DNA of 34,538 nucleotides from Basidioascus undulatus (lineage: Eukaryota): the NCBI GenBank assembly GCA_000826855.1, contig JTLS01000074.1, positions 1 through 34,538 on the forward strand, given 5' to 3'. The position numbers and the translations under genes are program-made. The notes beneath the pieces were generated by a model. It saw only the letters and a program-made list of their open reading frames with translations, did not search any database and was not told the DNA's origin. Within the stretch, counting starts at the first letter, position 1; each line of letters starts with the position of its first letter. Positions 1 through 34,538 of the stretch are shown here, in pieces.

Positions 1-29
1 CAACCCCTTCCTCACCCCCTCCCGTCCAG

Positions 30-621
30 GTTTCTCCCAAGGCGCCGGCCTTGCCGCGCTCCTCGCCTCCCTCGTCGCCCGTCCCTCGCTCCACCCCGAC
101 TTCACCGCCTCCCACCCGCCCTTCAAGTTCGCCATCACCGTCTCCGGCTTCGTCTCGCACGAGCCCGCGCACAAGGACTGGTACCCCCTCCCCGGGCTGG
201 AGACGACCAAGATACTCCATATTATCGGGCGGAACGACACGCTGGTCGTGCCGGAGCGGAGCGAGGCGCTCGCGAAGCTTAGCCCGGGGGGGAGGGTGGA
301 GTACCATGTCGGCGGGCACTGTGCGTCTTCCTTAGCATCTCGACTCGTATCTCCATCTCACCCTCCCCTTCATCCTCGCCAGTCCTCCCCTCCACAGCTG
401 CCTGGCGCCGCTTCTTCCACCAGTACATCTCCTCCTTCTCCACGCCGGACGGGGTGCAAGGCGACGTCGAAAGCCCCGTCGCCAACCCTTCTTCCAACCC
501 TCCCTCCAATGCGTCTACGCCTGCGCCCAGCCGCCCTTGGACGCCCGAGCGCGGCGCGGAGAAGGACGCGGGCCCGGACGCCACGCAGAAGCAGGAGGAG
601 GTGCCGAAGCCGCAGCTTTGA
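30..621 (+). CDS. Serine hydrolase, FSH1/OVCA2 family (3' part; 5' exons outside window)
   Basis: After the acceptor ccag (26-29) the frame reads GFSQGAGLAALL...FKFAITVSGF...ILHIIGRNDTLV...HVGGH. Intron 321-382 (gtgcgt...ccag) then gives FLPSTAAWRRFF... to TGA 619-621. GFSQG (Ser), G-x-x-D (Asp) and HxGGH (His) match the FSH1-family triad motifs. Confidence 0.85.
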
Positions 622-834
622 GGGGTAGACGGCGGAGGAGCGTCCCAGTTGACATGGACATGGAGTTGGTCACGGACTCGCCTCTTGCCGCTCAGATAGC
701 GCACGCTTGCATTGACGTGGTTTGTGGAGGTGCATGTGCCTAGTTGATGAGCAGGAGTGTTAAAAGTATCTAAGTGCGTTTGAGTGTCAATCTTTTAGCC
801 CTCCGTATGTCTCTGCAATAATCCTTTGATTATA

Positions 835-5563: not shown

Positions 5564-8500
5564 TCACTCCCCTACCTCAACCAGCTCCGCCCCCGCCCTC
5601 TCCGTCCAGATGCTCAGCGCCCAGCGCTCCCCAACCCCCACGCCCTGCGCGTAAGCACTCATCACGACAGTGTACGTCCCCGCCTCCAGATGGACATCCT
5701 CGACGAGTGCGCCCGCGCGTGCGTCTGAGTATGGCCCGGAAGTCGCTATGGGGGCTTCGGGACGGGAGTGGGCGGAGTAAGAGGGGAGAGGGCGGAAGAG
5801 GGAAACGTTCAGGGGAAGCGGGGCGGACGAGGAGGTCTGCTGAAGACGGATGCTGAGAAGCGTAGTGCAAAGCGATGAGTTTCGAGCGGCAAAGGTTGGG
5901 GGTAGGGGGATGGAGCCAAGTACCGAACGAGCCCGCTGCTCTTGAGCTTCAGCCCGAGCTTCGGATTATCGCCGTACCGCCCAAAGCGCGGTGCACCGCC
6001 TGCCGTATGCTCCGTCCATTCTCCTCGTGCGGTGAGCGCAAACATCCCCGCGCCCTCAGCGGGGATGGGGTCGAGGTCGAACGGCAGCGTGCATTCGAGG
6101 TGGAGGGTGAACGCGGCGAGGCGGCCGGGGGTGAAGGTGGAAGGGACGAGGGTGTAGGTTCCGGCTGTGGAGAGGAGGAGTCAGTATGTAGCGCGCCGAG
6201 AAGGGTAGGTAGAATCGTACGCGAGACGCCCGACTTTTCCAGTAGGGCGAGTGAGTGCGTGTACTTCCCGGAATCTGCAAGGGCGTCGCCGTCCGCGAAA
6301 CTGTTCATCCTCCACCGCATCAGTGACGGCGCGATACAACAGACGACCCGACAGCGTACTTGTATACCCGCTTCCCCTCCCCCCAAACGAGCTTGACATT
6401 CACCGGCACGTCCCCCGCCGTCTCGACCGTACATCGCAGCGCAGCGGTCTGCGGCCCTCGCACAGTGGGCGGGCGGATGTTGAGCCTACACTGTGGGTTG
6501 ATATGGAAGGTGGGGAAGGTAGGGTTCCCGCCCGCTGTGCGGGACGTCCAAGCTCCGTCGACCTGCCCGGCGTGCGAAGGGGAATGAGCGATGCGGTGAG
6601 ATGCGTGGGAGACGCAACCGCGAGCTCACCTGTTGAGTGTATGGGAATCGATGTGGCGGGTCGGAGATGGTGAGCGGGACGGAGGAGTAGGCGGAGAGGG
6701 TGTACCCGATCTCGGGGTCTTCGCCCTCGGAAGACGGCTCGGCGCGGCGGTGGGAGACGACGAGCGCGAAGGGGGCTGTGGAGGAGCGAGTGGTGACGCG
6801 AACCTGTACAGAATGGGGAGGGTGAGCATATCTCAGGTGGTAGGGGCAGCCAGCGCGGGAAGGCGTACCAGGATGTGCGGGCTGTCGGTCAATACGTCCT
6901 GCTTGTCCGCCACTGCTCAGCATCCTCCCAAAAAGCTGCATCCCAACACCGAAGGCAGAAACTCACGCCCCCCACGCCCTTGTCCCTCTGCACGCCATCA
7001 TCCGCCCCGTCCGTCCCATCTGTCTCGAACACGTGCAGCGCCGAGAGCCAATCGCCGTCGCTCTTCTTACTGGCAGTATGGCGGGTGAGGAGGATCCAAA
7101 GTTCGAGCGGAGAGGATGAGGACGCCGACGGGGACGAGAAGCTGAGGCGGAACTGGGGGTTGCGATCTGCGGAGTGGGGGTAAGCTTCGGCCGCGCGGCA
7201 AGTTGAGCGGAGAGACCTTACCGAGGTAGGAGCTGGAGGTGGTGCTGACTTTGTGCGTTCTGCGAGTATGCTCCGAAGGATCAGTGTTTGTCTGCGAAAT
7301 GAGAGAAACTGGAGGAAGGACGTACGCGTGCACGCTGGTGGAGTGAATGAAGATGTCCGGGTCCCAGTTGAGGTACAGAGCGTCGAAGAAGTCGCACACC
7401 TCATCCCAGGACAGATCAAAGACGCCTGCGTACCCTCCCAATCAGTAAACCATCTTTCACATTCGCAAGGGGCTTTTCTACCTTCGCGCTGAGTCCCGTC
7501 CTCCAGGACTGCCCGCAAGTCGTATGTCCAGCCGTCGGCGTGCACAGGACCGCCTTGACTCCGCCACGGATTCGCGACCCGCACGATCCGCCGCCCGTCT
7601 TCCTCACGCACATCTGCATAAATACGTGAGCTGCCTGTGTCGCAAGAATAGGAGTGGGAAGAAGCGCACCTTGCACAGCATAATCGTGGCTCGTGATGAA
7701 CCCCTTCCGCTCCAGCAAGGCGTCCAGGTTCTTCCCCGTTCCTAGACTGACCAGGCACGTTCCTATCCAACGACCATCAGCTCAGCTCTACAGGAGTCCC
7801 TGCTTAGCGAGCAGTGCACACGCGAAGGGTCAGCCCTCACCGTGTCGGAAACCGTTGTGTATCCTGAGCCAGGTCTGCTCGCGCTTGAACGAGGTACTGA
7901 GGCGAAGGCCAAGCTTCAGCCAACGTCTCCAATGATCCTGCAACGTGGGGACGCGCGCTCACTCTTGTAGAGAGACGTGCTCGGGTATCCAGCCTGTCAG
8001 GGCGCTGCGGTCCGGCACGGGTGCTCAGCGCGCGTTTCCAGAAAACGGATAAAGTGGCTGTACTGAAGGTCTATGCTCGAGTTCCTGCTCAGTAAAATAC
8101 AATACGTCGTGAGCGGCTGACGGAGACGCGGGGCATGAGGAAGGCGGAAGCGCACGAGCCAGGGAAGTCGTATCCGCCCATGAGCTTCATGTACTGTTCA
8201 ACCGCAATTGTGATCAGCATTCTCCTTATCCTTTCCTCTGGATTATGGGTAAAACTAAGGACCCACAGCCTTCTCCAGCAGCGCCGGCCAGATCTCCGTC
8301 CCAGCGCGCGGGGTTGCCGTCATGAGGCGGCCGTCGGGATAGGTGGGGAGACGGTCGTCGATCTCTGTTCTCGTCATGTTCCAGACCTTCCATCAGCCTT
8401 CCTGTGTGCGTTTTGCAGAGAAGGCGAAGGAGGTCCCCCACCTATTGAGCGGTGCGCGCCGTTGATCAGCAGACGCACCAGGTAGCCGCCGCTCTCGCTG

Positions 8501-14054: not shown

Positions 14055-15265
14055 TTACGGCCACTCGTCCCAATTGCCCCAGCTGGTGCCCGAGACGGCC
14101 TGGTCGTACCGCCACTCCGCCTCGACCCAGTTGATGACGTTCCAGATAGCGGCGAGGTACTACTAACCTGTATCAGCCTGATTAAGGCAATTCTTTAGGA
14201 ATATACTACCCACAGCACCACGGTTGTTAAGGTACTCCAGGTAGTAAGCGTGTCTGGCGGGGAAACGAGTATTGTCATCAGCAACGGTGAAGGACAAGCG
14301 AAGTGCAGGCTAGGCTGAATACTCACTCCCACTATTCGGAGGAAGGAGTGGGAGCATTATGAGCAGAAGTTGCACTCTCTGTGGAGCTCACGTACAACGT
14401 CGATGCCGATGATTGGCACATGCGGTGGAGAGGGTGGAATGTCTTGATTCGCAGTCGCTGTGGGGCAAACCCCCTTCAGTAACAAGAACGGTTAGCCTCT
14501 TGGAGATGAGAAAACCGGCCTTAACTGATAATGTCGAGAGCCTTGGCATAACGGTTGTAAGTAAGCCAGCCCCACCCGCTAAAAGCACGCGTCGTCAGCA
14601 GTTCTTCAGTCTGTCTTCTTAGAAACCTCGGACTGAAGGCCAAACGTACGATCCTTGAATACCAACAGTGATACTGTTGAATAGGGTAATGAAGCTCGAA
14701 AGGGACCCGAATTGCTCCACAATGGCTTGTTCTAGATCGGACCCTGTAAAGCAGTCATGAGTTAGAGGACTCTGCCCGGAAAACTTTGCGGTCTGGGAGC
14801 AAGACCAGATGGATCACCTCGTGGAATGGTGTGGTTGGTGGAGTTGTTCGGGGTGAGGATCCTCCAGAACAGGGAGTGGTTGATGTGGCCTGAACCGGCG
14901 TTCCTCCATGAATCAGCACTTTCGCCCACGCTGCACATTGAAAGTCCGAACGGCTCACCTCCCCCATTAAACCTCAGCGGGCTCGTGAGCTGCACCTCAG
15001 CCGTGACGTTTCCTACCGAAATGGCGTTGCACATCTCCCTCTCGGCGGTGTTGAGCCCGGTCACGTACGCCAGATGGTGCCGGTCGTGGTGGAGCTGCAT
15101 GATCTGCGCCGAAATGTACGGCTCGAGCGCATCGTACGCGTACGGCAGCGGGGGGACGGTGTGGTTACGGAGGCCGGAGCAGTCCAGCGTTGGGCGGAGG
15201 GGGAAGATCTGCGCTGAGCCTAGCGAGGCGATGGAGGCGAGGGGGAGGAGGACTGCAAGAAGCAT
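14055..15265 (-). CDS. Mn-type (Fe/Mn family) superoxide dismutase with N-terminal signal peptide, 8 exons
   Basis: Exons approx. 15265-14959, 14889-14818, 14743-14650, 14578-14526, 14457-14396, 14331-14327, 14253-14214, 14159-14055. Product: PPLPYAYDALEPYIS...LHHDRHH...FNGGGHINHSLFW...GIQGSGWGWL...TANQD...IGIDVWEHAYYLEY...IWNVINW. All four metal ligands (His, His, Asp, His) are present. The GGG and NQD signatures indicate Mn specificity. Confidence 0.95.
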
Positions 15266-16324
15266 GTTAAGCTGTGCAAGAGGGGAGTGGGGAAAACGGT
15301 GAAGGAGGGCGGTAGTTCAGTAATAAACGAGAGGCCCTAAGACATAATGTCCTGGATTTTCAAGAATAAGCTGCCCGTCGTACCTCAGGACCTCTGGAAG
15401 CGCCCACTTGTTTCCGCAATAGCACTACAGGTGCGTGTCACTGAACCACCTGTTTTAGCGACACAGATACGGGAATGGGACGACCAACTTTTCCATGAAG
15501 CAAAAGTTTCACGTTCCGCCTTCTATAATTATGGCCGTTCACAAGGCGGGACCTCATCGGGCTGTGGTCCACAGACAAGCACAACCGCTCCCGCTACTGC
15601 CACACGCAGGTCAGGGACAGCCCAGCAGATGCATTGACGTTTTTCTAGAAGAGTAGGGTACTTTTCTTCAGTACATCAACGCAATCAGAACGTCCACAGA
15701 TGCGCGCTTAATGTGACTGTCGTAATTATCTCGTGCTGCAGACAAGGCTCCGTTCTTGACAAGGCTGGTACGAAACCACTTGGTTTTCGGTCTGGCCTTG
15801 CATCAAGCAACATATTTGCGGTAGGACCTTGATAATCTGAAGGCCTGTTATGAGCCAACGATGAAGCTGAAGGCGCTTGTAACTGCTGCGCGCGACAGTC
15901 GCGACAGCGCGGTCGCAGCGCGGCGCGTTCAGAGCGAACGGTCTTTCTGAAGAAGTCATCTGCCCGTACAAAAGGCTTTCCTGATCATTCAATTACGCTG
16001 TGAAACGAATACGACTGAATTGCGCCATGTCCTCCGAGCGAGACTGGGCGAGGTGACAGCAGCGAGAGAGATCCCAGACCATATAACACACGCTATTCAG
16101 CACCAGCTTCAAGTTGCAGCTCAATTCGTTACGATGCGGTGCGCTACGGTAGGTAGGTGCGTGAAATACAACAATGAAGATCGACTATAGTTATATATCG
16201 ACTGTACCACCCCATTAACTATGGTTGGGGTGGGTGGTTTCTCTGCGCAATATGACCGAGACGATGTTGAACGCGAAGCGATATACAAAGCGGACGGGGG
16301 AGGGATGGAGGAGTGAAACAAAGT

Positions 16325-18318
16325 CTACATAGCAGTGATGTGCAGGCCGCCCAGCGGCGGCGGTCCGGCCGCACCGCCGGAGGGCGCGTCCCCCCCGCCT
16401 GCGCCGCCGTTCTTGACATTGTCCGACTTGCGCTTGGAGTTGCGCTTGGCCCAGCGGAGACCGCAAGCTGCTCAATCGGTCCGTCCGTCAGTCTCGAAAG
16501 AAGGAACGCGTGGTTGGGATGACCGTCACGATAGGGTGGGTAGGGCAGGGGAAGGCAAGGTGGGGACGACGGACCATTGCAAAGCGTCTTCGCCCCCAGC
16601 GGGCCCTTTCTCCACTCGGGGCTATCCGTCCTCCCACAAGTAACGCACACGTGCGTATCGTCGTCCACCGCCTTCCTCCGCTTCTTCTTCTGCCCGCCCG
16701 CATCCTCGTCCGCTCCGGCGCCGACGACCTGCATCGGCTGGTGGGCGGCGGGTGCAGCAGCGGCGGGGGCGGTGGTGAATGGTGGGTTCGCGGTGGGGGG
16801 AGGTGGGGAGTCGGTGTGCTGTGTGGAGGGGTCGCAGGAATGCGTGGGGAGGGAGGGCTTGATGGGTGATGTGGAGGGGGCGGTGGTGGTTGAGGTGGTG
16901 GTGGAAGAGGTGGTGGAGAAGAGCGAGGAGCCAGGGTCGAGCCCCGCGCGCCGCGCTTCGGCATTGTTGCGCAGCTCCTGAGCGCGGGAGAGGGGGCAGG
17001 AGAGGAGAGGTGTAAGAATAGGAACGAGTTAAGGAGGGAATGAGGGAGAAAGAGGGAGAGACAGAGAAGACGCACCTGCAGCTCTTGTCGCAGCCGCTCG
17101 TTCTCCATCTTGACTTCCAAGAATGTGTCGAGCCTGTTCCCGCGTGCTCTCCCATCAGTCCCATCCCGTCCCACTCAACCCCATCGCCCACCGTGGAAGG
17201 AGATGAGAGAGCCAGCGACGCACGATTCTGTGTTCCGATTCGGGTACGGCCTGCCCATCGCGAAGAAGCACTTGATCTCCTCCCCGCCGTCATTCCCGTT
17301 CCCGCTCGCGTTCGCGCCCTCCTCCTCCTTCGCGTTGATGTTGTCCCTCCGACTCCCGAAGTGCGGGTGCCCGCGCACCTCGAAGAGCACGTCCTCGCCG
17401 GACTTTGTGCGCAGGCGGTAGATGATGGACGCTTGTGTGCGGGTGACGATGGCGTGCTGGAAGGAGGAGAGGAAGGAGGGGCGGTCGTCGGCTGTGGGGG
17501 GTGGACGTTCGGGGTGAGGGGAAGGGGCCATGGAAGTGGAGGGAGGAAAGAGGAAGGAGGAAGGAGAAGAGGGACAGACGGTGGATAAAGTCGACCATCT
17601 GCTTTCCGACCATGTCGTCCGGCGTCCAGCCGGACAGCTCGGTGATTGCGGGAGACTGGACAGAGAAAGATAGGTGAGGGTGGGTGCGGAAGAAGGAAGA
17701 CAGGGCGGATGGCAGGCTCACGGCAAAGAGCAGCTTCCCCGTCGGGGTCAACGCGTGCATGAACGTGTGCGCGAGCTCGGTGATGAGCACGTCCGCCCAC
17801 TTCTTGCGCTTCGTGAACTCAAACTGCTGCTTCTGCGGGCGGGCGGGCGCGGCGGCAGGCTCGGGCGGCTGCTCCTGCTCGGGTTGGGGCGGGGGCGGAT
17901 GGAAGAGTGTCGGCTGCGGCTGATGGAACGCGGCCATGTCGTGCTGCGGCGGCGGGGGGGGAGCCTGCTGGTAGTACAACTGCTGGGGTGCGGAGGAGGG
18001 GCCGAGCGCGGGCGGCCGCGCGTCGTAGAGCTGCTGGCGCTGGTAGGCAGCGTGGTCGTGCTGGAGCTGGAGATTGAGGTAGGACGGCGGCGGCGGCGGC
18101 CACTGCTGCGCGTATGGCTGCTGTGCGTGTGCGTGCTGTGCGTGCTGCTGGTGATGATGGTGGTGGTTGTGGTGCAGGTGTGGGTGACCTTGAATGGGAC
18201 TCGATGGCCCAGCGCCGGCGTAGGGCCCGGCGCCGCCATAGGGCCCGCCGATCGCAGTGGACGACGGGCCCGGGGCGGCGGATGACGATGAGGACGCGTG
18301 CGGGTGATGGAACGACAT
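16325..18318 (-). CDS. wc-2: White collar-2 (PAS domain + GATA zinc finger) blue-light transcription factor
   Basis: His/Gln/Pro-rich N-terminus. PAS region [15 protein letters not shown]...[10 protein letters not shown]...VDFIH...YRLRTKSG, then FFAMGRPYP and [18 protein letters not shown] finger [32 protein letters not shown], split by an intron. TAG 16325-16327. Confidence 0.9.
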
Positions 18319-18427
18319 TTCGCTCGCTATCGCCAGCTGGCTATTGCTAGCGCGCGCGTATTAGATTCGGCACCGTCTCAGATGGCGACCGCGCGACGGC
18401 TGGAGAGACAGCGACACCGAAGGCGGA

Positions 18428-20435: not shown

Positions 20436-22170
20436 ATGGGCTTGTTCAACCGGAAACGAACACGGAGGGAGGACGATGATGGTCCGGACGGGACCAAGGG
20501 GACTAAGAAGGAGAGCAAGAAGCCTGCCAGTGAGTCGGGTTATCGCTTGCCATTCTACGTGGCAACGTTTGGTGTGGGTTGATGTTGGGAATGGGGAGGG
20601 ATGCCGTCGCCTTGGTGGCTTGGGCGCGATGAGGGGCGGCGGTTGGAGGGAGATCACGCCCTGGGGAGCCACCCGCTGCGTCCACCATTCGAGCCTAGCC
20701 AGGGCGATCCTGCTGCTCGCGCTGCCAGTCGTCCCGCAGCACTAACGCTGACCACACTTGGTCTACCCCTGCAGATACCGCTTTCAAGCAACAACGACTG
20801 AAGGCCTGGCAGCCGATCCTGACGCCGAAGCAGGTCCTGCCCTCCCTCTTCCTCATCGGCGTCATCTTCGCGCCGCTCGGCGCTGTCCTCCTTATCTACT
20901 CAAATCGAGTACGCGCCAATCCCTCTCCCCCCAAGCCCCTCCGCTTCCCTATCTGACGCTGGGACGATCCCCCAGGTACACGAGTTCACGCTGGACTACA
21001 CCGCGTGCGACTCGCTTGCGCCGTCCAACTCCTTCGCTGCCATGCCCTCCTCCGCCTTCTCCTATCCCTCCTTCTCCACCTACTCCACCCCCTCCTGGTC
21101 CTTCACGAACGACTCCTCGCGACCCGTCGGCGAGGAGGCGCAGTGCACGATCCGCTTCGATGTGCCGGCCGACCTCGACCCGCCCGTGTTCCTCTACTAC
21201 AAGCTCACGAGCTACTACCAGAACCACCGGCGGTACGTCAAGAGCGTCGACACGGACCAGCTGCTCGGCAAGGCGCCGAGCAAGTCCGCCATCGACGACG
21301 GCAACTGCAAGCCAGTCGGCAGCTACAACAACAAGATCATCTACCCTTGCGGCCTCATCGCCAACTCGTTCTTCAACGGTTCGTCGCCCCACCTCACTGC
21401 CACCCCGGATTCCCTTGACTTACATTTCGGCCGTCGCAGACACCTTCACCGTCCCCATCTCGCGATCCACCAACGCCGAGTATGCCTTCACGGACCGCGG
21501 CATCGTGTGGCCACACGAGAAGGAGAAGTACAAGTTCCCGACCGGCTACCCTACGAACGACTCAGTCTCGCCCCCGCCTAACTGGTACCGCCGCTTCAAG
21601 GACGGGTACACGGATGAGAACCCGATCCCGGACCTGAGCAAGGACGAGCACTTCCAGGTCTGGATGCGCACCGCCGCGCTCCCGACGTTCCGCAAGCTCT
21701 ACTACCGCAACGACAACGACACGCTCACCGCGGGTGAGTACGAGATTACCATCCACATGAGTGCGTCCTTTCCTATGCGCCTGTGGGGCTTCTCGGGATG
21801 GCGGGGCGATCCAGGCGGAAGGGTGCTTGCTGAGTGCGGATGTGGAATGGTTGCCTTCTTGCAGATTACCCCGTCGCCATGTTCGGAGGAACCAAGTCCC
21901 TCGTCTTCTCCACCGTGTCCTGGCTCGGCGGGCGCAACTCGTTCCTCGGCATCGCGTACATCGCCGCAGGCGGCGTCTGCGTCCTCCTCGGCATCGCCTT
22001 CACCATCCGCCATCTCATCAAGCCTCGGTCCGTCCCGTCCCACCTCTCATCCGCATCTCCCTCTCCCCTCTTCTCTTCCATCCGCGCTCCTAACTCCAAC
22101 CCCTTCTCTTCCGCGCAGGCGGTTGGGCGACATGTCCTTGCTCAGCTGGAACCAGCCCGGGGCCCGATAG
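20436..22170 (+). CDS. CDC50: CDC50/LEM3 family P4-ATPase (phospholipid flippase) beta subunit, multi-exon
   Basis: [22 protein letters not shown] (intron 20530-20774), TM1 [81 protein letters not shown] plus TM2, [15 protein letters not shown] 22168-22170. Confidence 0.95.
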
Positions 22171-22920
22171 ATCTCGTTCACCTGGAGGAGGCAGCGGCGG
22201 GTGGAGCGGTTGTTGTGTCTGGTTGATGTTAGTCGGGTCGAGGACGATGCCTTCTTTCTCTTCTCATTCTCACTTAACCCCCTTGCTTGCTTCTTGCCTC
22301 CGTGTCTTCCACCCCTATCGTCTCTGGACTGTTCTATTTGCGCTTTTTAATGACCACCCTCACGATACTCGATTGATGTGCGACGTTATTTGTGCTCAGA
22401 TACCCCCTTATCTTCAGCATGCGTGCTGATCGCCTGCGTCTTGTCGAGGACCGCAACATGCACACCTGCACTGAAGCGCCATAGTAAGCCGCACCGCGCA
22501 GAGATGCGGGCGTTCCCACGGCGACGGTTCGGGATGGAGACAAGTGAGACAAGTGCCGAGTGAAGGTAGGAGGACCTGTGTAGAGCATGGAAGCTGGTTG
22601 CAAATATTGGTTGCAGGGCCGGGGCTGGCAATCGTCGAGCGCCGAGCCACCTGCCGTGGCTGGGATGAAGATCTCAACGATGTTTTCTCAAGGTTGTTTT
22701 CTGTCCCATTTAAGTATGTCTATGAAGCACCACATGAAACAAGGAGTGGGAGGACCAACAGTCCCTAAGGCTTCGAGCGGCAACATGCGGCGACGACAAG
22801 TGGCAAGTGCCACTAAACGCCGCCGCTGTGCCGCATGCACGCTGTTGCCTTCAACCACCACCTCCTCCTCTCCTCTTCATCCGCGTCCAAGGTGCATCTA
22901 CCCACATTCCCTAAGCCAGA

Positions 22921-32848: not shown

Positions 32849-34538
32849 ATGCGCTCGAAGCTGGCGGCGTCCTCCCCGCTCACGTCCGCGTCCGAGGACG
32901 AGGCGGAGGCAGACATCTCGTTCGACTCGATGACGCCCGGGAAGGTCACGGCGCACGGTGAAAAGGTCGTCTACGGGCGGGGGAAGACAGTCAAGAACAA
33001 GAATGGGCGGCGTGGAGGGAAGGGAAGGGCGGCGGCGGAGAAGGATGAGGAGGGAGAGAGCGAGGAAGCCGAGGAGGACGAGGAACAGTCGCCGAAGAAA
33101 CGCGGCATGCCTCCAAAGGCGAAGGTGCCGGTGCAGGCGACGCCGAAGGAGGTGACGCCCAAGCGGGGTCGGGGGCGGGCATCGGTCAAGGGCAAGGCCG
33201 CCGCGGACGTCGAGGACGCGGAAGACCCCCCGTCGCGCACGCGCAAGCGACCGCCAACTTCGAATCCTCCCTCCTCCTCCCGCCCCGCCAAAGCCGCCAA
33301 ACCCTCCCCCGCGCCCTCCTCTTCCTCAGCTGCTGCCGCCCTCTCGTCGTCCAAGAAACGCACCCGCACATCCACCGCATCCACCTCCAGGCCGGCCCCC
33401 GCTCGAGAGACGAGCACCCTGCTCGCCGAGCTCCTGGACTCGTCCAAGGCCCGCGAGCCGCCTCCGCGTCGCAGCGTCAAGGCCGAGGAGTGGAAGCTCA
33501 GCAAATTCTCGAACGGCGTGGTCGCATGGGTCCGTCTGGACGCAATGGGGCAGCCTGTGGAGAAGGGAGGAAAGTTCTGGTGGCCTGTTGATGTGCGTTC
33601 CTTCCTTGCTGCGTTTGTGCCGTGCAGGTAGGATTGCTGACGCCTGCAATATGGGGACGGCCAGGTCATCGATAATGGCATAGACGGCGTCGAGGTCTCC
33701 TTCCAGTACGGGAAACCTGATCCGGCACCTTCGTACGCCGATTCTCTGCCCCCCTGTCCCAGATTCCCTCCCACCTCTCACCCTCCCACCTCACTTCAGC
33801 CAATACCAATTCTTCGTCCCCAACCCCTCCCCCGCGAACCTCCAGCCTTTCCGCATCCCACCCACCAACGTCCTGCGCTTCTACTCCCCAATCTCGCCCC
33901 CGTCTCTCCACACCGCCTCCCCCACCTCGGCTCAGCGCACGCAGCCCGAGCCGTTCCACGTGTCTCCGCCCAACGCTCTACACAAGGCGCTGCTGTCCGC
34001 GCTCGAGTGCGCGCAGGAGGACGACGACGACTCGCTGCCTGATGCGGACCCCGAGGCGTGGATCTTCGCGGCCGCGAGTGGGACGGGGCTGGGGGGCGAG
34101 GAGAGCGACGGGGAGGCCAAGTCGCTGGTGCCGACCAGCCCGGATGCGATGGACGAGGATGAGGCGAGCGCCCCGGATCCTTCGTGCGCCGTTCATGACC
34201 TTCTCTTCCGTATGTTATTTCAGCTGCTAATGGGTTACCGTGAGCGCAGGATCGACATGCCCGAGTCCGTCTTCGCCGAATGGCAGCGCTGCTACTGGCC
34301 CGCACGCGTCATCGACTTCCTCCCCGCGGACGCGTCGACCACGCTCAAAAACCGCAAGAAGAAGGACCTCTACCTGGTGCAATTCGAGGACGGGACGGAG
34401 AAGAAGCTCCCGCGCGACAAGTTCTTTACGTCGCTGGAGAAGGAGGGGTTCACCACTTGCCCGGTCCGTCCCCCTCCGCTCTTTCCATTTCCCCCCCCCC
34501 CCCTTTTCCACCTCTCTTCTCCTTCTCCCTCTTCCCCC
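32849..34538 (+). CDS. Chromatin-associated protein with PWWP-like and Tudor-like domains (3' end outside window)
   Basis: Long Lys/Arg/acidic disordered N-terminus with PKRGRGR. VAWVRL...KFWWPVD|VID (33517-33670). Later VFAEWQRCYWPARVIDF...YLVQFEDGTEKKLPRDKFFT (34268-34430). The window ends in an intron (gtccgt at ~34464). Confidence 0.7.

Follow-up and report, generated by a model that had tools for sequence, protein, structure and literature searches.

Extracellular superoxide dismutases (SODs) of fungi are assigned to the copper family in the accessible portions of the reviews on the subject, and the manganese enzymes (MnSODs) of basidiomycetes are placed there in mitochondria or in the cytosol (including PMC10512322). 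The concept of a secreted MnSOD already has precedent. In Arabidopsis, MSD2 possesses a signal peptide and SOD activity and is found in the apoplast or the vacuole, with a location that depends on its leader, as far as the available text of the reports goes (bioRxiv 10.1101/2021.12.01.470564; PMC9543660). An MSD2-mCherry fusion was strong in the vacuoles of guard cells (available text of bioRxiv 10.1101/2021.12.01.470564). In Podospora anserina, PaSOD2 is described in the accessible sections of two papers as an MnSOD that is associated with the perinuclear endoplasmic reticulum (ER) or secreted (PMC8868140; PMC9605262). The gene treated here lies on contig JTLS01000074.1 of the fungus Basidioascus undulatus (assembly GCA_000826855.1), in a window of 34,538 nucleotides, by which we mean the whole stretch of DNA that was analysed, here an entire contig. 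By its sequence it encodes an intact Fe/Mn-family SOD of the Mn type. Its most likely affiliation is with an older line of basidiomycete MnSODs of the secretory pathway. A first reading of the window (the original prediction) had proposed an MnSOD retargeted to the secretory pathway. The secretory-type leader and the extra N-glycosylation sites (sequons) on which this was based are present; however, they are not specific to this genome and belong to an older gene lineage with the same features. The rarity of the concept had been overstated, given the secreted MSD2 and the reports on PaSOD2.

Secreted MnSODs were also predicted from expressed sequence tags of Melampsora and for two proteins of Hemileia (00297 and 01268), in each case as predictions only in the accessible text (PMC2996950; PMC3953675). 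The original prediction had pointed to predicted secreted SODs of Pucciniomycotina plant pathogens, which these rust proteins bear out, but a later survey, in its available part, predicts the Melampsora orthologue (107563) to be mitochondrial (PMC10512322). In the part of its table that is accessible, one of 138 basidiomycete SOD2/3 rows is predicted extracellular (Polyporus brumalis 1319619), and Rhodotorula glutinis is listed with one mitochondrial and one cytoplasmic copy only (PMC10512322). Signal peptides are reported for Cu/Zn SODs only in the accessible portion of another paper (PMC12891635), and VdSOD3 of Verticillium, according to the available text, lacks a signal peptide and is exported unconventionally (PMC11162859). 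No account of a clade of MnSODs with signal peptides, whether from Sporidiobolales or from related basidiomycetes, appeared in the full-text literature searched, PMC4071342 and PMC4161775 included, and subscription journals and secretome supplements, which lie mostly outside this search, may hold identifications.

The gene is located on the minus strand, from an ATG at 15265 to a stop codon at 14057-14055, and the predicted span (14055..15265) is exact. The exon model, which was built from splice signals and homology, comprises 8 exons and 7 GT-AG introns of 54-74 nucleotides, each with a branch-like motif. The spliced frame of 738 nucleotides (245 amino acids and stop) contains no stop or frameshift across the 8 exons, including a micro-exon of five nucleotides that is required to complete the DxWEH motif (Table 1). 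Weak points of the model are the in-frame intron 1, the GTTAAG donor of intron 4 and the tandem TAG-TAG acceptor of intron 7, where use of the first AG would introduce a stop.

Exon 1 matches PF00081 (Sod_Fe_N) with 93.7 bits against a cut-off of 27 (E 9.5e-27), and for PF02777 (Sod_Fe_C) single exons give only pieces below the cut-off. The spliced protein is 54% identical over 216 residues to the full-length MnSOD of Galerina. All four metal ligands (H59, H107, D195 and H199) are intact, as had been claimed, and the outer sphere is complete with H63, Y67, Q156, W197 and E198 (human H30, Y34, Q143, W161 and E162; human MnSOD numbering is that of the query minus 33). Both elements of the Mn-type signature, GGGH (residues 101-104) and QGSGW, are present. 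In an AlphaFold model, residues 19-102 are predicted with a mean pLDDT (predicted local distance difference test) of 91, the block containing Cys29 with 90, and this hairpin matches those of the human, Arabidopsis and Trichoderma MnSODs with a root-mean-square deviation of about 1 Å (1.0 Å for the human enzyme). A comparison with the ESM Atlas returned generic Sod_Fe_N clusters only, at 0.80, and a metagenome scan gave 80 loci of generic SOD relatives with at most 81% identity over short stretches. Features of the Cu-only extracellular SODs (Sod5 type) were not detected in the query, which matches Sod_Fe families only and has an acidic, non-hydrophobic C-terminus.

Residues 1-18 contain neither R/K nor D/E and reach a best eight-residue Kyte-Doolittle mean of 2.9, which bears out the earlier description of an uncharged, hydrophobic leader that is not Arg-rich. 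The same measure has a maximum of 2.3 and a mean of 1.1 in 63 named intracellular basidiomycete MnSODs. Two to four R/K occur in this span in 20 of 20 mitochondrial MnSOD leaders and three in the mitochondrial-type copy of the same genome (L002), compared with none in the query. Small residues at positions -3 and -1 are the rule at signal-peptide cleavage sites, and the G-S-A ending after A18 agrees with it. Besides Met1 only Met56 and Met78 are present. Since Met56 lies within the catalytic core, a leaderless intact SOD cannot arise from a downstream AUG, a possibility that the original prediction had raised against itself.

Leaders of equivalent type were found in at least 14 proteins from two genera (best eight-residue means 2.0-3.55). 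Rhodosporidiobolus is represented by R. ruineniae, R. microsporus (two), R. nylandii, R. lusitaniae, R. azoricus and R. poonsookiae, and Rhodotorula by R. toruloides (four), R. kratochvilovae and R. paludigena (two). These relatives stem from the best 120-150 matches of each of three word-indexed searches and one exhaustive profile search, and the counts are lower bounds. All 14 are annotated as hypothetical, generic or 'mitochondrial'. Six sequons occur in the query (N34, N86, N106, N117, N118 and N121). The sites listed in the original prediction are among them, although its 'NNST' consists of two overlapping sequons (N117 and N118) and N106-H107-S108 had been missed. Leaving out the N-H-S/T site common to intracellular enzymes, five count as added in the query and 1-6 (mean 3.1) in the 14 relatives, and 65 intracellular basidiomycete MnSODs average 0.38 (p 5e-10 by the Mann-Whitney test, for sequences that are not independent, kinship being uncorrected). 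Three further features of the query recur in the relatives: a sequon at position 86 (6/14 versus 11/427 other fetched SODs), Thr at 94 (10/14 versus 9/427) and Trp among the last three residues (14/14 versus 5/427). A dibasic KR or RR, which constitutes a Kex2-type processing site, follows the leader in five of the 14. Taken together, leader, pro-region and sequon gain provide the best indirect support for entry into the ER, and across the three secretory readings weighed below the protein would enter the ER with high probability.

The Sporidiobolales proteins, for example GAA6043863.1 of Rhodosporidiobolus ruineniae and GJN92498.1 of Rhodotorula paludigena, are probable orthologues of the query and have in common with it a hydrophobic leader, T94, a C-terminal G-x-x-W and added sequons, among them the one at the hairpin turn. 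They differ in sequence (about 47-50% identity of the query to P0137 and P0135) and in the longer pro-region of many members, which bears Arg or a dibasic site. Furthermore, the Cys pair is absent or located elsewhere, and some members lack outer-sphere residues. In Rhodosporidiobolus microsporus two relatives, P0135 and P0139, have adjacent locus tags (JCM6882_001280 and JCM6882_001281) and contigs of equal length, pointing to a tandem duplication of the secretory-type copy.

Ligands are kept and the outer sphere is changed in P0148, P0210, P0250, P0252 (R. toruloides), P0253, P0138, P0139 and P0323. In P0148 and P0210 of R. toruloides, H63 is replaced by G, Y67 by H, Q156 by K or R and W197 by F. 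Y67 is changed to F in P0138, P0139 and P0253, the last of which also has Q156 changed to P. For R. toruloides, a widely used industrial yeast, a loss or change of SOD chemistry is possible judging from these substitutions.

Outside this group, in a cluster of Trichoderma MnSODs (P0016), a hydrophobic leader upstream of an inner Met is present in 11 of the 15 members listed, and the rest start at or near that Met; members are labelled mitochondrial or generic. Two starts may here give a secretory and a cytosolic form. Signal-peptide-like leaders also occur in eukaryote-like MnSODs from Ascodesmis nigricans (P0371, in which an RR site, sequons and Trp at the C-terminus are found as well) and in the Logan proteins P0323 and P0348. 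Secretory retargeting of MnSOD may have occurred several times.

The sixth sequon, N106-H107-S108, sits on the metal-ligand helix next to ligand H107. All 65 intracellular basidiomycete MnSODs compared retain this N-H-S site, without harm to the enzyme. It is altered (NHA, LHS, NHF) in five of the 12 secretory-type relatives alignable there, two of the 14 being excluded for models broken at the site, and in three of three plant MSD2 sequences. Loss of the site in the relatives and in MSD2 and its retention in intracellular enzymes suggest that a glycan so close to the metal is selected against after ER entry. The retained N106 sequon would be a liability for the query.

The two Cys of the N-terminal region and the Trp-rich tail (residues 235-245) were found as described, and inspection revealed no hydrophobic C-terminal tail of the kind that signals a glycosylphosphatidylinositol (GPI) anchor. 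An HDEL/KDEL-type C-terminus is likewise absent from the query. Cys29 lies five residues before the position of human K1, and Cys79, on helix 1, corresponds to human Q46. Because the N-terminal strand of MnSODs runs along helix 1, a Cys29-Cys79 disulfide is plausible. The copies of R. toruloides carry Cys residues at 27/32 and where helix 1 ends. In an AlphaFold model of the relative P0135 the core has a pLDDT above 90, but the last six residues average 80, a less certain prediction for the packing of the Trp tail.

In a tree of 67 rows with bacterial outgroups, 12 of the 14 relatives form a clade (support 100/99). When bacteria were left out (40 rows), the query and the Logan protein P0323 joined this clade (86/97), and the resulting group was sister to an ascomycete PaSOD2-like group (82/92), in an alignment whose columns may include leader positions. 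A core-only tree (192 columns, 38 rows, long-branch rows P0371 and P0336 dropped) again placed the query with the relatives, with 98.7 in the Shimodaira-Hasegawa-like approximate likelihood ratio test and an ultrafast bootstrap of 73. The link to the ascomycete group vanished in this tree. For an approximately unbiased (AU) test the query was regrafted onto each of the 72 branches while the remaining tree was kept fixed, and the best three placements lay at the base of the signal-peptide group. Rejected were a position as sister to L002, that is orthology with the mitochondrial copy (p 6e-5), as sister to the leaderless copy L003 (p 0.013), beside plant MSD2 (p 0.0006) and inside the ascomycete PaSOD2-like clade. 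The two intracellular SODs of this genome fall outside the Sporidiobolales intracellular clade, which suggests that the secretory-type lineage reaches beyond that order.

The searched genome (a 32-Mb assembly of 2992 contigs), a basidiomycete one by its short GT-AG introns and closest named relatives, contains three PF00081 loci. Besides the query gene there are L002, with an Arg-rich leader of mitochondrial type, and L003, whose catalytic domain begins right at the start of the protein. The separate mitochondrial SOD2 expected in the original prediction therefore exists, and the query is not the only MnSOD. Identity of the query is 52% to L002 and 57% to L003, and a tblastn-type search with a secretory-type relative led to the same three contigs only. 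Intron 1 of the query shares its position with L003, intron 3 with L002 and intron 5 with both. These three common positions mark the query as a fungal paralogue and rule out horizontal acquisition from bacteria. A fourth candidate, L005:1-245 (contig C2214), is a degenerate Sod_Fe_C without ligand motif, which resembles the mitoribosomal SOD-fold protein and is not a fourth enzyme.

Seven NAD_binding_6 loci were detected in the genome, including L089. By its motifs we take L089:430-880 (contig C2022) to represent exons of a NoxA-like NADPH oxidase, a candidate endogenous source of superoxide. For Cu/Zn-SOD, the genome search gave no PF00080 candidate, and three motif patterns gave one match (L087), which lies in no Pfam match and was treated as chance. 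The apparent lack of a Cu/Zn-SOD fits published counts. In the accessible data PF00080 numbers zero in Microbotryum, Sporobolomyces, Rhodotorula, Ustilago, Sporisorium and Malassezia, and 2-18 in Mixia and rusts, the Microbotryomycetes being listed without the family (PMC4469406).

In the mechanism that we infer, from ER entry and glycosylation over disulfide and metal to the final location and physiological role, the third MnSOD paralogue would enter the ER via its 18-residue signal peptide and would be N-glycosylated on the surface loops at N34, N86, N117/118 and N121. A Cys29-Cys79 disulfide would possibly clamp the protein, and Mn2+ would be taken up in the lumen of ER or Golgi. After release to the cell wall or the medium the enzyme would convert superoxide to H2O2 and O2. 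The superoxide could come from the fungus's own NADPH oxidase and ferric reductases, or from neighbours and hosts. The protein would thereby fill the place held in other fungi by GPI-anchored Cu-only SODs, no Cu/Zn-family SOD having been detected here. An active extracellular or cell-wall MnSOD, with this mechanism as a whole, appears to be the somewhat better than even reading.

Several observations weigh against it. N106-H-S, if glycosylated, would place a glycan next to ligand H107. None of the six compared Rhodosporidiobolus relatives has any Cys, so that the Cys pair is not conserved in these; the query in turn lacks the dibasic pro-peptide site seen in part of the relatives. In the 67-row tree the query was unplaced and drawn to the bacterial outgroup (63/92), the core-only bootstrap for its union with the relatives is just 73, and seven of the 72 AU placements stay in the 95% set, one of which makes the query the sister of the ascomycete PaSOD2-like group (p 0.08). 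The grouping with the relatives could be inflated by long branches. The absence of Cu/Zn-SOD is weak evidence, because the genome search misses intron-split domains, among them the query's own C-terminal domain, and because the assembly is fragmented. Finally, a leader does not imply an extracellular site, since MSD2 is also vacuolar and PaSOD2 is reported from the perinuclear ER; judged by the leader, ER, Golgi or vacuole would fit equally well as the outside.

The enzyme could instead work inside the secretory pathway, in the lumen of ER, Golgi or vacuole, on superoxide from an ER or vacuolar NADPH oxidase or from oxidative folding, with the Trp motif possibly serving as a sorting or membrane-contact signal. 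This is a minority possibility. It draws on the perinuclear ER location reported in the accessible text for PaSOD2 (PMC8868140) and on the guard-cell vacuoles marked by MSD2-mCherry. The terminal Trp, conserved in all 14 relatives and of no known function, and the candidate NoxA-like gene would fit as well. It sits poorly with the missing HDEL/KDEL-type ending and with the many added sequons, which are typical of exported proteins, and the dibasic sites of five relatives point at least to passage through the late Golgi.

A secreted protein that is not a plain scavenger is unlikely, although conceivable. Here a glycan on N106, mis-loading with Fe or an altered oligomer would leave weak activity or make the protein a source of H2O2 or radicals for extracellular chemistry or signalling. 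The query does keep the site that is altered in 5/12 relatives and 3/3 MSD2 sequences versus 0/65 intracellular enzymes, and the outer-sphere changes in several relatives show a lineage free to drift in its chemistry. Yet every ligand and outer-sphere residue is retained in the query, and N-H-S is kept, hence tolerated, in seven of the 12 relatives.

That the gene is a decaying or barely expressed paralogue, with leader and sequons as relics, is highly improbable. An end branch of 0.6, versus about 0.2 for both paralogues, would agree with decay, as would a G+C content at third codon positions of 0.55 in codons 127-211 (14214-14743), compared with 0.86-0.94 elsewhere in the mature protein, and the irregular splice sites of introns 4 and 7. 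Long branches are, however, common to the whole clade, and the 8-exon frame is uninterrupted with all catalytic residues present. It is hardly credible that the protein is one more MnSOD of mitochondria or cytosol whose leader is unusual, or that its start was placed wrongly. Six bases ahead of the ATG lies a CAG that closes a pyrimidine run and might accept an upstream exon, and some relatives carry the label 'mitochondrial'. But these labels are automatic, the first 18 residues have no basic residue, the relatives share start place and leader type, and the upstream ATGs at -80, -231 and -292 hit stops or need introns far longer than those seen (54-76 nucleotides).

As an extracellular or at least secretory MnSOD, the query would work like MSD2 and PaSOD2 but would not be a member of either group by descent, as far as tested. 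With MSD2 it shares the status of an MnSOD paralogue with an N-terminal signal peptide (putative in the query) beside a separate mitochondrial copy, and a Cys within the extension at the N-terminus (residue 28/29 in the three Brassicaceae sequences compared). The two have separate origins, and MSD2 lacks sequons, has one Cys and has lost N-H-S; five added sequons, a second Cys and the Trp tail set the query apart. Secretion and activity were shown experimentally for MSD2. PaSOD2 and SMAC_03915 of Sordaria, in what is accessible on them, are likewise fungal MnSODs outside mitochondria beside a mitochondrial MnSOD. They differ in being ascomycete proteins of fungi that keep Cu/Zn-SOD1, and Podospora australis P0009, provisionally classed as PaSOD2-like because of its length and a leader that is not mitochondrial, lacks a leader of strong hydrophobicity. 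VdSOD3 and the rust MnSODs have in common with the query that they are fungal MnSODs said to act extracellularly. Fungal Cu-only SODs (Candida Sod4-6, Fusarium FoSOD5, Puccinia PsSOD2) share the proposed extracellular removal of superoxide after ER passage; they have an unrelated fold and metal and are, in the available part of the survey, usually GPI-anchored monomers (PMC10512322), in contrast to the query with its lack of a GPI tail.

Table 1 Features of the MnSOD gene and other genes in the 34,538-nucleotide window (residue numbers are those of the query)
Feature	Position	Strand	Content or basis
Exon 1	14959..15265	-	Start codon, leader, Cys29 and Cys79, sequons N34/N86, H59, H63, Y67, helical hairpin; PF00081 match
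Putative signal peptide, residues 1-18 ending G-S-A	15212..15265	-	Hydropathy and charge comparison, equivalent leaders in 14 relatives
Cys29, N-terminal extension	15179..15181	-	Read from the spliced model
Cys79, helix 1, human Q46 position	15029..15031	-	Alignment to human numbering
Sequon N86-V-T, hairpin turn, human D53 position	15002..15010	-	Site common to the secretory-type clade
Intron 1, 69 nucleotides	14890..14958	-	In frame, no stop; position matches intron of leaderless paralogue L003
Exon 2	14818..14889	-	Ligand H107 within sequon N106-H-S; added sequons N117, N118, N121 in loop after helix 2
Exon 3	14650..14743	-	Last residue is outer-sphere Q156 of QGSGW; followed by intron 3, position common to L002
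Exon 4	14526..14578	-	Followed by intron 4 with atypical GTTAAG donor
Exon 5	14396..14457	-	Last residues are ligand D195 and V196; followed by intron 5, position common to L002 and L003
Exon 6, micro-exon of 5 nucleotides	14327..14331	-	Codes for W197 and part of the E198 codon (two bases); predicted from AG/GT ends and conserved DxWEH
Exon 7	14214..14253	-	Ligand H199, Y202
Exon 8	14055..14159	-	Last helix, Trp-rich tail, stop codon
Trp-rich tail, residues 235-245	14090-14058	-	Within exon 8
FSH1 serine hydrolase	2-625	+	Frame scan
Calpain domain III	5812-6180	-	Frame scan
CDC50/LEM3	20752-22223	+	Frame scan
Crb2-type Tudor domain	33684-34538	+	Frame scan

The neighbours were identified by a scan of 100 frames of the window, chosen by length and third-position G+C content, and the four listed in Table 1 are ordinary genes. 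A gene with PAS and GATA zinc-finger domains, which we take to be White Collar-2-like, lies on the same strand about 1 kb upstream of the SOD gene (16219-18360, minus strand); this proximity is probably coincidental.

A wider and tentative proposal, which we hold to be a little less probable than not, is that this genome, seven or more Rhodosporidiobolus/Rhodotorula species and one Logan protein represent an old line, as yet undescribed, of basidiomycete MnSODs that are N-glycosylated and secreted by the classical route, and that this line arose where Cu/Zn-SOD was lost and took over the copper-free control of extracellular superoxide. Adaptation to the ER would have been stepwise, with new sequons on surface loops and at the hairpin turn, repeated loss of the buried N-H-S as in MSD2, lineage-specific disulfides and a Trp tail, and some members would have acquired new active-site chemistry. 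The lineage may share its origin with the ascomycete PaSOD2 group, in which case a secretory MnSOD would be ancestral to Dikarya. If true, a secreted MnSOD lineage in culturable red yeasts and their relatives would correct the picture of fungal extracellular SODs as a copper family only, together with several 'mitochondrial' database labels, and would explain how fungi without Cu/Zn-SOD handle superoxide from outside. It would also offer a tractable system for the Mn loading and folding, in the oxidising and glycosylating environment of ER and Golgi, of an enzyme that is normally metallated in the mitochondrial matrix.

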